A stretch of 64,000 bases of DNA from Verrucomicrobiota bacterium (GCA_036803685.1 DAIRTX010000010.1:2074-66073), one strand, 5' to 3'. Positions 12,598-42,520 are shown, numbered from the stretch's first letter. Program-made: numbers and translations. The notes: generated by a model from the letters alone, not told the origin.

Positions 12598-12656
12598 TTC
12601 AAAAAAGTTTGTCCGGTTTTCGGCTCCGGCGACCAGCCATCATTGCGAATGACACA

Positions 12657-25699: not shown

Positions 25700-25714
25700 G
25701 AAATAATTATTTTT

Positions 25715-25773
25715 GGCAGGGACGCGCTGCCGCGCGTCCCTGATTTTGGGCGGCGCAGCAACGCCGCCCTACC
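25715..25773. repeat. GGTAGGGC...CCCTGCC family element, inverted relative to 24343..24428
   Basis: The reverse complement reads GGTAGGGCGGCGTTGCTGCGCCGCCC...CAGGGACGCGCGGCAGCGCGTCCCTGCC, which aligns with the copy left of murA. Confidence 0.75.
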
Positions 25774-25778
25774 TGAAT

Positions 25779-26705
25779 TTAATTACGCCGTGCAATTAAA
25801 AATCTTTCGCGCTGACTGTAATCCTCCCTCACCGCTTCGACAATCCACTTTTCGGTCTCAAAAATTTTCCGGATGGCGTCGGCCTGGCCGTCGCCGAATT
25901 CCAGCATGATCTTTCCGCCCGGTTTCAGGAACGGTTTCGATTCCATTGCCAGCTTCCGGTAAAAATCCAGGCCGTCCGCGCCGCCGTCCAGCGCCGCGCG
26001 CGGATCAAAGTCGCGCACTTCCGGCTGGAGCGTGGCGATTTCGGCGGACGGAATGTAAGGCGGGTTGCTGATGATAAGGTCGAATTCCATTTTTCGGAGG
26101 GAGCTCCGCGAGCTCCATTCTTCTTTGGGGGAGTCAGGGCGTCGCGGCGCTCCGCCCTCCGATTCATTCTGCAGTGCGGCAAAACCGTTGCTTTGCAGAA
26201 ATTCAACCCGTTCGGCGGCGTTATGTCGTCCGGCGTTTTGTTTGGCCAACGCCAGTGCGTCCGGCGAAACATCCGTCGCCACGACTTTTGCGGACGGACA
26301 TTTTACCGCGAGCGCGATGGCGATGCAGCCAGTGCCGGTGCCGAAATCGAGGGCGGTTGAGGGTTGAGAGTTGAGGGTTGAGAGAAACTGCCACCCGAGT
26401 TCGGCGAGAATTTCAGTTTCCGGACGCGGGATCAGAACATGGCGGTTGACGGCGATTTCCAGTCCGCAAAACGAAGTTGAGCCGGTGATGTGCTGGAGCG
26501 GTTCGCGCTGGCCACGGCGCTTGATGAATTCGCGAAGGCCGTCCGTTTCCGCCGGGGTGAGTGCGCGCTCGAAGTTCAGATACAATTTCATGCGCGGCAG
26601 CTTGAGCAGATGTGCGAGCAGGAGTTCGGTTTGCAGGCGCGGCGACTCGACGCCTTTTTTGGCGAGAAATTCCGTGCTCTTCTGAATCGCCTCAAGAACC
26701 GTCAT
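25779..26705 (-). CDS. prmC: Peptide chain release factor N5-glutamine methyltransferase
   Basis: Start at MTVLEAI (the track ORF extends to 26765). 'DFGTGTGCIAIALA' is the SAM motif and 'IISNPPYIP' the catalytic NPPY. It carries two repeat-derived insertions. Confidence 0.9.
   Translation of the reverse strand: MTVLEAIQKSTEFLAKKGVESPRLQTELLLAHLLKLPRMKLYLNFERALTPAETDGLREFIKRRGQREPLQHITGSTSFCGLEIAVNRHVLIPRPETEILAELGWQFLSTLNSQPSTALDFGTGTGCIAIALAVKCPSAKVVATDVSPDALALAKQNAGRHNAAERVEFLQSNGFAALQNESEGGAPRRPDSPKEEWSSRSSLRKMEFDLIISNPPYIPSAEIATLQPEVRDFDPRAALDGGADGLDFYRKLAMESKPFLKPGGKIMLEFGDGQADAIRKIFETEKWIVEAVREDYSQRERFLIARRN
26094..26162. repeat. 69-bp three-way palindromic element inside prmC
   Basis: Outer stem TCGGAGGG/CCCTCCGA encloses GGAGCTC-cgc-GAGCTCC and GGGCG...CGCCC hairpins. 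It is exactly 23 codons, codon-aligned, and encodes 'SEGGAPRRPDSPKEEWSSRSSLR'. Confidence 0.85.
26355..26384. repeat. Heptanucleotide array (GGTTGAG/AGTTGAG)x4 inside prmC
   Basis: Read directly. It encodes 'LSTLNSQPST', immediately N-terminal to the SAM-binding 'LDFGTGTG'. Confidence 0.9.
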
Positions 26706-26734: not shown

Positions 26735-27112
26735 TCAAACTTGAGCATCCTGCCGCTTCCGGCAATCATTTCTGACATAAAAAATTATTAAAATATTGCA
26801 GCCCACACAGATAAATCCGAACCATCCGATAAATTGTAAGAACTCAATGAATGGAACGCTCATCTGGAAATTCGACTCGGCAGCGACTCGCTGCAAACGC
26901 ATACCCTCAATCCACTTGTCGGTTGTGAATTGCCACTTTCCACTTTTCACATTCTCGACAAACAGGACAAATTTTTGATCGCTTTCTAGGCGCTCCTTCT
27001 CATGCTTGTGGTATTGCCTGAAGTATTTATTTGATAAAAGCAACGCGCTCGCCGCAAGCATTGCGAAAATTACGCTTGGCATCAATAGGTGTGCGATGTT
27101 TTTTCTGGTCAT
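26735..27112 (-). CDS. Small two-TM membrane protein in an AT-rich islet
   Basis: 125 aa from MTRKNIAHLL (ATG at 27112, inside track ORF 26735..27367). It has N- and C-terminal hydrophobic helices. Local G+C is visibly far below that of the neighbours. Confidence 0.5.
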   Translation of the reverse strand: MTRKNIAHLLMPSVIFAMLAASALLLSNKYFRQYHKHEKERLESDQKFVLFVENVKSGKWQFTTDKWIEGMRLQRVAAESNFQMSVPFIEFLQFIGWFGFICVGCNILIIFYVRNDCRKRQDAQV

Positions 27113-27191: not shown

Positions 27192-28061
27192 TCAGCGCGG
27201 TAAATTTCCCACGCCTTTGAGGTAGGTAAAGATGAGTTCGGGCAGGTCGCGGCTGTAACCGCCTTCGAGCAGGCTGAACAGCGGCACGCCGAGCGCGCGC
27301 AGCGACTGGCCGAGCCAGTAAAAATCGTCCACCACCAGCACGCCCTGCACCAGCGGGTCGCGCACATAGGCGTCGAACCCGGCGGACACGGCGACCAGGT
27401 CGGGCCGGAATTTTTTCAAATCGTCCAGCGCGCGGACGAGCGCGGCGCGGTATTCCTGGCGCGGCAAGCCCAGCTCGACGGGATAATTAAAACAGTTATT
27501 GCCGGCATTCGCGCTGCCGGTGCCGGGATAACACGGATGCTGGTGTACGGAAAAAAACGCGACGCCGGGCCGGTCCAGCAGAATGGCTTCCGTGCCGTTG
27601 CCGTGATGCACGTCGAAATCGAAAACAGCGACACGCTTTGCGCCTGTGGCTGCGGCTTCGAGCACGGCGATGGCAACATTGTTCAAATAACAAAAGCCCA
27701 TTGCCCGGTCGCGTGTGGCGTGATGGCCTGGCGGTCGCATCAAACTGAAAACGCTTTCGCCATTGCGCGCGGCGGTCAGCGCGGCGAGTGCGGCGGCGGC
27801 GGATGCGCGGGCGAAACTGGTGATGTTTTCGTAAAACGGCGTGTCGGCATCGAAATCCTCCGGCTCGTTCAAGCGCGCAAGATGTTCAACCGAATGGGCG
27901 CGGAGGATTTGCGCGTCACTCACCCGGCCCGGTTCGGTCCATTCAATGGGTAATTCGGTCTGGTTGCGCAGGAGTTCGAGTGTGGCGAGGATGCGCAGCG
28001 GGCGTTCGGGATGGCCGGGATAGGAATAGCCGGCGCAGCGTTCGTCGGTGATGATTTTCAT
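27192..28061 (-). CDS. Histone deacetylase-family (HDAC/AcuC-like) deacetylase
   Basis: 289 aa. 'RPPGHHA', 'FDFDVHHGNGT' and 'EGGY' motifs. Confidence 0.9.
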   Translation of the reverse strand: MKIITDERCAGYSYPGHPERPLRILATLELLRNQTELPIEWTEPGRVSDAQILRAHSVEHLARLNEPEDFDADTPFYENITSFARASAAAALAALTAARNGESVFSLMRPPGHHATRDRAMGFCYLNNVAIAVLEAAATGAKRVAVFDFDVHHGNGTEAILLDRPGVAFFSVHQHPCYPGTGSANAGNNCFNYPVELGLPRQEYRAALVRALDDLKKFRPDLVAVSAGFDAYVRDPLVQGVLVVDDFYWLGQSLRALGVPLFSLLEGGYSRDLPELIFTYLKGVGNLPR

Positions 28062-28121: not shown

Positions 28122-28192
28122 ACCTGGGAGCGCTGGCGTCCCGCCGGCGTGTGACAGTGAAGCTGGCCGGCGAGACGCCGGCGCTCTCAGGG
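28122..28192. repeat. Three-way palindromic element (outer stem CTGGGAGCGC/GCGCTCTCAG; inner GCTGGCG-tcc-CGCCGGC and GCCGGCG-aga-CGCCGGC)
   Basis: Read directly. The inner hairpin core CCGGCGAGACGCCGG is identical to the reverse complement of the truA-tail hairpin. Confidence 0.75.
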
Positions 28193-28301
28193 GCCAATCT
28201 TCGGTTTGCCGCCACCGATCGCGATTTTTATCGGCCCCAAGCCAATTTTTTTTGCAATTGCAGTGGATTCCGTTAGTCTTGAGCGCATTAAAGATTCAAT
28301 T

Positions 28302-38839: not shown

Positions 38840-42520
<3,681 letters not shown>

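Follow-up and report, generated by a model that had tools for sequence, protein, structure and literature searches.

The 64,000-nucleotide stretch of DNA analysed here (the window; GCA_036803685.1 DAIRTX010000010.1:2074-66073) comes from a Verrucomicrobiota bacterium and carries, on its minus strand at 25779..26705, the gene prmC (hemK), which contains a 69-bp palindromic element in frame at 26094..26162. This element is a doublet of repetitive extragenic palindromic (REP) sequences and belongs to a large repeat family, hereafter family A, that is associated with REP-associated tyrosine transposases (RAYTs) of its own. The genome under study (G000), a draft of 3.87 Mb in 183 contigs, was searched as a whole. 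PrmC comprises 308 amino acids when translated from the ATG at 26705-26703; the open reading frame (ORF) extends as far as a TTG at 26765, but orthologues instead begin with MTVLEAIQKS, and the ATG start agrees with 19 of them. The identification as PrmC, made in a first-pass annotation of the window, is borne out by the NCBIfam model TIGR03534 (RF_mod_PrmC), which scores 269.7 bits against a cut-off of 199.1, and by a Foldseek search whose top match is 2B3T_A, PrmC in complex with release factor 1 (RF1), with an E value of 2.3e-20. All catalytic motifs are invariant in 20 orthologues, including the glycines G122, G124 and G126 of the S-adenosylmethionine (SAM) motif GxGxG and the catalytic N214-P-P-Y217.

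Part by part, the element reads TCGGAGGGAGCTCCGCGAGCTCC / ATTCTTCTTTGGGGGAGTCA / GGGCGTCGCGGCGCTCCGCCCTCCGA, that is, a 23-nt arm (26094..26116, plus strand), a 20-nt spacer (26117..26136) and a 26-nt arm (26137..26162, minus strand). It is free of stop codons, aligned with the codons of the minus-strand ORF and equivalent to residues 184-206 of PrmC (SEGGAPRRPDSPKEEWSSRSSLR) between FAALQNE and KMEFDLIISNPPY, exactly as the first-pass annotation had read it. All the stems named there are present as well, namely an outer stem TCGGAGGG/CCCTCCGA and two hairpins, GGAGCTC-CGC-GAGCTCC and GGGCG...CGCCC, and the sequence folds better than its shuffled versions (z = -4.08 for the plus strand and -3.10 for the minus strand, with none of 200 shuffles equally good). 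However, the predicted minimum-energy fold is a single long imperfect hairpin and hairpin 1 shares 2 nt with the outer stem, so that the three-way junction originally put forward is one among several alternative folds. On the plus strand the hairpin GGAGCTC-CGC-GAGCTCC at 26100-26116 is followed by ATTCTTCTTT, and hairpin and tail together match a terminator-like pattern antisense to prmC. The element is not a self-removing insert, as judged by its 69 bp, which lie below the size of an intein, and by an Rfam search that gave no intron match.

The two arms differ in their state of preservation. The 26-nt arm, TCGGAGGGCGGAGCGCCGCGACGCCC on the coding strand, matches the family pattern described below, with a TCGGA head, a 5-bp stem, a tandem G.A pair, a 2-bp stem and a triloop, and all its covarying pairs (9-23, 10-22, 13-19 and 14-18) are formed. 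The 23-nt arm, in comparison with the consensus TCGGAGGGGCGAGCTCCGCGAGCCCC, shows a 3-nt deletion and a C-to-T change. Since the orthologous copy in the closest relative (G103; 89% amino acid identity) keeps the intact form of 72 nt, the perfect 7-bp hairpin GGAGCTC-CGC-GAGCTCC must be secondary, a consequence of the deletion, and the prmC insert is decaying. A deletion of the same type is found in the copy within NadC of G000 (C4:20250). Between G000 and G103 the insert is 92.8% identical, compared with 80.4% at third codon positions elsewhere in prmC. As to the spacer, family members differ there, and no two genomic spacers are alike.

The right arm of the prmC element recurs many times in G000, each time with an inverted partner 10-60 nt away. 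A census by blastn-short followed by pairing of inverted arms yielded at least 41 doublets of 60-114 bp plus about 25 good single arms. With an exact degenerate arm pattern 75 arms were found, while the reversed control pattern gave none. Relatives of the 69-mer, the existence of which the first-pass annotation had made a touchstone for its idea of a mobile palindrome, are thus plentiful. The arm consensus, (T/C)CGGA-GGGNN-GA-GY-TNN-RC-GA-NNCCC, can be drawn as a proposed hairpin in which a 5-bp stem is followed by a tandem G.A pair, then by a 2-bp stem and lastly by the triloop. Covariation argues strongly for this hairpin: among 105 arms (67 distinct sequences), 95.5% of the cells are paired against 81.5% in 500 shuffles, and 75 cells show double changes against 19.8 in the shuffles, none of which reached that figure. 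Three pairs covary, alternating between A-T, C-G, G-C and T-A, between C-G and G-C, and between T-A and C-G, respectively. The head, (T/C)CGGA followed by GGG, sets family A apart from the GTAG and CGTC super-families of REPs. Other families, GTAG-tagged, are present in the same genome and, in relatives, at the same prmC site.

The maintenance of arm pairing by compensatory changes could also mean that the hairpin is selected as a nucleic-acid signal, be it an mRNA stabiliser, a translational pause ahead of the catalytic strand, an antisense terminator or a site for a DNA-binding protein. The conservation of the insert relative to third codon positions between G000 and G103 and the antisense hairpin with its T-rich tail at 26100-26116 would fit such a role. 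However, the covariation is a genome-wide property of intergenic and intragenic copies alike, as recognition by a transposase predicts; half of the genus lacks the insert, other species have unrelated hairpins in its place, and one arm is damaged in G000 itself. In addition, terminator-like patterns in the region remain within chance (3 found versus 2.0 +/- 1.4 in shuffles) and an Rfam scan of the element gave no match. We therefore regard selection for a signal at the nucleic-acid level as improbable.

A transposase for family A can be pointed out. A 163-amino-acid ORF at C4:12112-12600 is bracketed by single family-A arms at C4:12040-12065 and 12614-12639, 574 nt apart, which lie in inverted orientation 47 nt upstream and 14 nt downstream of it. 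It scores 83.6 bits with the NCBIfam model NF047646, 'REP-associated tyrosine transposase' (cut-off 80), and matches E. coli TnpA-REP (4ER8) with an E value of 2.7e-7; in the alignment with 4ER8_A the HUH motif and the region of the tyrosine correspond, PDHLHL standing opposite PEHMHC and YLWENPIKDGLV opposite YIYINPVKHGWV. A second RAYT (C89:4989-5468), 68% identical to the first, is likewise flanked by family-A arms and has a family-A doublet next to it, which gives G000 two transposase genes for this family. Orthologues with at least 66% identity in five relatives (G006, G043, G010, G004 and G050) are flanked by family-A arms; paralogues with at most 53% identity are not. Family A thus displays the association that defines REP-RAYT systems. 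The nine matches to Pfam Y1_Tnp (PF01797) in G000 were considered as candidate transposases for the family and discarded: none is accompanied by family-A arms, and they are flanked by other repeats, or else by terminal inverted repeats that are long. The C4 RAYT is not among these nine, and a Pfam-A scan assigned it to no family; RAYTs of this clade would consequently be under-counted in surveys based on Pfam.

By homology with E. coli TnpA-REP, the RAYT would recognise the REP hairpin in single-stranded DNA and would move REP doublets without creating target duplications, the mobile unit being two inverted REP hairpins, each with a TCGGA head, around a variable spacer. Mobilisation of the doublets is suggested by their dispersed copies, by their presence or absence at orthologous sites and by an abundance that varies between genomes. 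No target-site duplication, such as would flank a MITE with terminal inverted repeats, could be discerned, in that the flanks of the 41 doublets contain no repeated sequence and a T...A extension of the palindrome is the sole pattern; the empty sites of relatives are too diverged to define exact junctions. Outside the window, the C4 RAYT and its two REPs (C4:11950-12740; L069:1339-2129) have on one side the genuine 3' end of a hemN-like gene (...GRLFIRNIAMCFDNTLAPVGERKHSRTI*) and on the other a copy of that end, about 88 nt long and diverged. It looks as if insertion of the RAYT had duplicated or displaced the last 30 codons of the hemN-like gene.

The prmC copy is by no means the only one inside a gene. 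At least 17 of the 41 doublets (at least 41%) are in frame within conserved genes, the hosts being protoporphyrinogen oxidase, NadC, PrmC, KsgA, a U32 peptidase, two glycosidase-like proteins, PrmA, TsaB, LigA, HrpB, IspG, MutY, a BioF-like protein, MetH, a DEAD-box helicase and HemL. Nine of the 17 were checked against NCBIfam: eight exceed the equivalog cut-off, and several matches are split at the insert. PrmA falls below, with 151 bits against a cut-off of 183. The in-frame doublets of PrmA and KsgA/RsmA (G000 C33:28129-28215 and C17:20795-20879) place the family in further methyltransferases. Each of the three frames occurs among the hosts, with peptides of the types SEGRVPRAP..DSQSSSLR, RRGELHES..GTRVTRPSE and GGTSYTSP. 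Family-A arms have no stop codon in five or six of their six frames, so copies that arrive in frame in permissive loops would be translated and survive. The distance from TCGGA to TCGGA is a multiple of three in 10 of 17 intragenic doublets and in 6 of 24 others, a weak separation attributable to true element ends that do not fall exactly at the TCGGA termini.

When public genomes were scanned with an exact pattern, at least 118 DNA stretches proved to contain family-A arms; almost all belong to metagenome-assembled genomes of Verrucomicrobiota or Limisphaerales obtained from peat, bog, soil, groundwater and lakes. Exact arms, elsewhere restricted to Verrucomicrobiota, also occur on two contigs (L088 and L110) labelled 'Candidatus Aquilonibacter sp.' and 'uncultured Bifidobacteriaceae', which are probably mis-binned. 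In G000 the overall repeat load is considerable: 16-mers with at least five copies form about 2700 blocks, or 1.9% of the bases.

Where does the insert lie in the protein? E. coli PrmC (HemK; 2B3T) shares the fold, GxGxG and NPPY with the G000 protein and can be aligned on either side of the insert (2B3T and 1T43, query 18-180 and 201-306), but it has nothing that corresponds to residues 184-206; only about 5 residues separate the helix from the NPPY strand, in keeping with the few residues that the first-pass annotation gives for canonical PrmC. In an AlphaFold2 model computed from 20 orthologues (mean predicted local distance difference test score, pLDDT, 72), residues 184-207 form a coil with pLDDT <50 between helix 176-183 and strand 208-213, so the prmC copy may be pictured as a disordered loop of about 23 residues. 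The strand runs into NPPY (214-217) at its C-terminal end whereas the insert meets its N-terminal end; a location just upstream of NPPY, as first annotated, is hence correct in the sequence but does not describe the model. The C-terminal ends of the strands are where class I methyltransferases bind their cofactor and substrate. An insert that leads into the NPPY strand at its N-terminal end is therefore expected on the face opposite the active site, and the loop probably points away from the SAM and release factor-binding face and leaves the enzyme intact. A second insertion-prone loop (110-115), which precedes strand 116-121 and GTGTG, is likewise located at the N-terminal entry of a strand. 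In G000 it accommodates an array of the heptamer GGTTGAG (26355..26384, minus strand), translated as STLNSQPST.

The insert of about 23 residues is missing from PrmC of E. coli and Thermotoga maritima and from about half of the species of the same genus. Our comparison set consisted of 110 same-genus genomes with PrmC, from which 57 sequences were extracted and classified. In 55 of the 110, PrmC aligns straight through the insert site, and about 50 give the two-piece alignment that marks an empty site; in most of the order's other families the NPPY loop has no insert. Conservation at the protein level, which would have told against a mobile palindrome, is accordingly not seen. Among the 57 classified sequences, in all of which the inserts at the NPPY loop lie inside an uninterrupted PrmC reading frame, the occupant is family A in 17 (SEG...LRK), family B in 12 (WGERPREP..SPGVSP), the GTAG-tagged family C in 6 (GQASSLSPS..TGKMPV), family D in 4 (VRRHVGALESGDMSPHS), family E in 3 (ERGRPARE..RASRPRS) and family F in 1 (GDPNSGTATRRPS); five sequences are short or unclassified and nine are empty. 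Altogether at least six families occur at the NPPY loop and at least eight at the loop before GxGxG. G000 also contains families B, C, D and F, with near-full arms numbering from 2-3 (C, D) up to about 10 (B). The family-A copies at the prmC site have one common junction and frame and lengths of 66-78 nt. Descent of the family-A and family-B prmC copies from one insertion was entertained, given that their arms share GGGGCGAGC..GCGAGCC, but a common origin is not demonstrable and the two are kept as separate families.

This turnover bears on the idea that PrmC has co-opted the peptide, say as a loop for a new interaction or for regulation. For family A alone, at least 17 species have kept the frame, and there is some conservation between G000 and G103. 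Nevertheless, the peptides found at the site are wholly unlike from family to family (SEGRVPRAP..., WGERPREP..., GQASSLSPS..., VRRHVGALES...), many species do without any insert, the loop is predicted to be disordered, and the same DNA is read in three frames in other hosts. Co-option thus appears very unlikely, and the prmC insert most likely has no function of its own. Least of all do we believe in an artefact of assembly or binning. G000 is a draft of many contigs, and repeats often mislead assemblers; however, independent assemblies of G103 and 16 other species contain a family-A doublet at the same codon and in the same frame, and the ORF is intact across the insert.

The turnover is illustrated by two well-supported sister genomes, G055 and G124, which are about 90% identical in the flanking DNA and contain unrelated inserts at both loops. 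Half-elements or remnants are found at the NPPY loop in G006 and G031, together with a residual 'VSPRQ' in G032, and in some relatives they stand beside newer inserts (e.g., L055, with family D followed by 'TGSPCQ', and L007, L059 and L062). On an insert-masked PrmC tree the family state requires 34 changes, compared with 35.3 for shuffled labels, and thus has no phylogenetic signal. The tree proved too star-like for counting gains and losses, and only starred pairs and the shuffle comparison were used. At the second loop, the inserts of relatives (L002-L067) are repeat-derived, of at least eight kinds and 10-25 residues long; the GGTTGAG array is common to many species, and family A itself occupies this loop of the same gene in several (e.g., L017, L054 and L047).

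Does the DNA of these loops attract its occupants? REP/RAYT insertion might prefer a resident REP hairpin or a local target motif, so that the loop would act as a landing pad that is repeatedly re-colonised and its occupant replaced; in that case, mere tolerance of the loop would not account for the recurrence. That about half of 110 species have an insert in one 5-codon loop, the number of families at both loops, the contrast between the two sisters, the remnants beside newer inserts and the junction and frame common to the family-A copies all speak for such a preference. However, the junctions of different families lie 1-3 codons apart, and the 41 flanks contain no common target motif or target-site duplication save the T...A extension. 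Moreover, the adjoining spacer between prmC and murA shows multi-family turnover too. In the window (25700..25778) this spacer contains a GTAG-tagged REP (GGTAGGGCGGCGTTGCTGCGCCGCCC, minus strand) as well as a further hairpin, which belongs to a different family; in 19 relatives (L002-L020) it measures 4-118 nt and contains differing repeat families, among them GTAG REPs, CCACAGAT...ATCTGTGG palindromes, ATCGTTAAAT arrays and GAGGACGAG simple repeats.

The occupant of the NPPY loop also follows the commoner family genome-wide. Arms of families A and C number 75 and 4 in G000, 50 and 17 in G103 and 21 and 3 in G055, all with family A at the site, and 33 and 57 in G124 and 3 and 4 in G016, both with family C. 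This agreement in five of five genomes is suggestive, n being 5 and the difference in G016 only 3 versus 4. With some 2700 repeated blocks in the genome and an occupant that tracks abundance, an untargeted flux passed through a filter of tolerance could suffice; the turnover in the prmC-murA spacer, together with this tracking, favours a high and largely untargeted flux of this kind. We therefore hold a targeted landing pad to be possible but doubtful. The same tentative standing applies to the stronger proposal that self-perpetuating landing pads rewrite the PrmC loops faster than about 10% nucleotide divergence accumulates, with the arms kept close to the consensus by re-insertion or conversion. 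If it were true, REP flux would contribute measurably to driving the evolution of loops in essential enzymes and would provide a natural map of their permissive sites.

Taken together, we put at about 0.85 the probability that the 69-bp element is an old, decaying REPIN-type copy (a REPIN being two inverted REPs with a short spacer between them) with its own RAYTs, which landed in a permissive loop of PrmC. Under this reading the NPPY loop and the loop before strand beta-1 would have been colonised repeatedly in the genus, by an occupant that tends to be the abundant REP family of the respective genome. Several observations weigh on the other side. The insert is conserved above the third codon positions of its host gene, and across species the arms stay near the consensus while the spacers have diverged. 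Pure neutral decay would not lead to this, and a constraint on the hairpin, gene conversion or re-insertion would be required. The published REP super-families have GTAG or CGTC where family A has its TCGGA head. Both transposition and translation of the insert are events that we infer, the PrmC tree is poorly resolved (28 of its 54 inner branches are open), and the predicted position relative to the RF1 interface derives from a structure model of moderate quality only.

Two other doublets in the window had been likened to the prmC element in the first-pass annotation. The likeness holds for the doublet architecture but does not extend to the sequence, each belonging to a different and multicopy family. 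The first, at 28122..28192 (CCTGGGAGCGCTGGCGTCCCGCCGGCG...; fold z = -6.2), is an intergenic inverted doublet between one ORF that ends at 28061 and another that starts at 28206, and its arm has 12 near-full copies in the genome. The second, at 42104..42175 on the plus strand, lies inside the mfd ORF (38840-42520) and is a GTAG-tagged REP doublet that represents a third family; its two arms have 23 and 36 near-identical genomic copies. Further repeat-derived changes are seen in PrmC itself: in six relatives (L003, L006, L007, L015, L065 and L067) the protein has a poly-serine end, KSSSSSSSS, that stems from TCG/TCC repeats. An in-frame TAA interrupts one orthologue (G084:C13:2623-3588; L041), which has family C inserted at the NPPY loop and family F at the second one; this may reflect a pseudogene, an error of sequencing or a gene disrupted recently.

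For annotation, these results mean that the 23 residues ahead of NPPY are repeat-derived filler and not a new feature of PrmC, and that gene callers and hidden Markov models split or under-score genes with such inserts, PrmA being an example. The genus as a whole offers a natural experiment, with one essential enzyme, two loops and at least 14 repeat families between them in about 110 species. It reveals the places at which a class I methyltransferase can accept 20-30 additional residues, as well as the pace of turnover in REP populations. Moreover, a REP family without the GTAG tag and with two RAYT paralogues makes a clean system for the study of hairpin recognition by RAYTs.

The classic in-frame palindromes of a comparable kind are the Rickettsia palindromic elements (RPEs; Ogata et al. 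2000, Science), which are reportedly selfish, inserted in many housekeeping genes, translated and tolerated at the protein surface. RPE-1 is about 100-150 bp long, AT-rich and not known to have a link to RAYTs. Family A resembles the RPEs in that in-frame palindromes occur in many coding genes (17 of 41 doublets); it differs from them in composition, being GC-rich, as well as in length, host phylum and lifestyle, and we set it apart by description and do not file it as RPE.

The closest precedent is the survey of intragenic GTAG/CGTC REPs and their inverted dimers by Di Nocera, De Gregorio & Rocco (2013, BMC Genomics 14:522; PMC3733652), which itself cites the work on Rickettsia elements (its refs 13 and 14). 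The repeats described there encode 20-30 residues, and Opitutus terrae, also of the Verrucomicrobia, is the richest in cases, the hosts including helicases, DNA ligase, Uvr proteins and DnaE2. Like family A, these are short palindromes or inverted dimers that lie in frame within conserved genes; in the authors' proposal, the inserts occupy flexible loops or linkers. However, they have GTAG or CGTC heads where family A has TCGGA, HemK/PrmC is not among the listed hosts, and occupancy of the same site is reported for Xanthomonas recB only, as against the two PrmC loops with their at least six and at least eight families in about 110 species. Intragenic REP dimers in Verrucomicrobia are thus already known, and what is added here is a non-GTAG family in PrmC and a quantified turnover at its hot spots.

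The paradigm for the mobile unit is the REPIN-RAYT system, in which REPs form inverted doublets and the RAYT gene stands between REPs that belong to its family (Nunvar et al. 2010, PMC2817692; Bertels & Rainey 2011, PMC3116915). Family A has in common with it the inverted doublets, the short spacer, the RAYT situated among its own REPs and the HUH motif with a catalytic tyrosine. In comparison, classical REPINs are almost wholly extragenic and have conserved spacers, whereas at least 41% of the family-A doublets are intragenic and their spacers are hypervariable; in addition, family A has two RAYT paralogues and a head other than GTAG.

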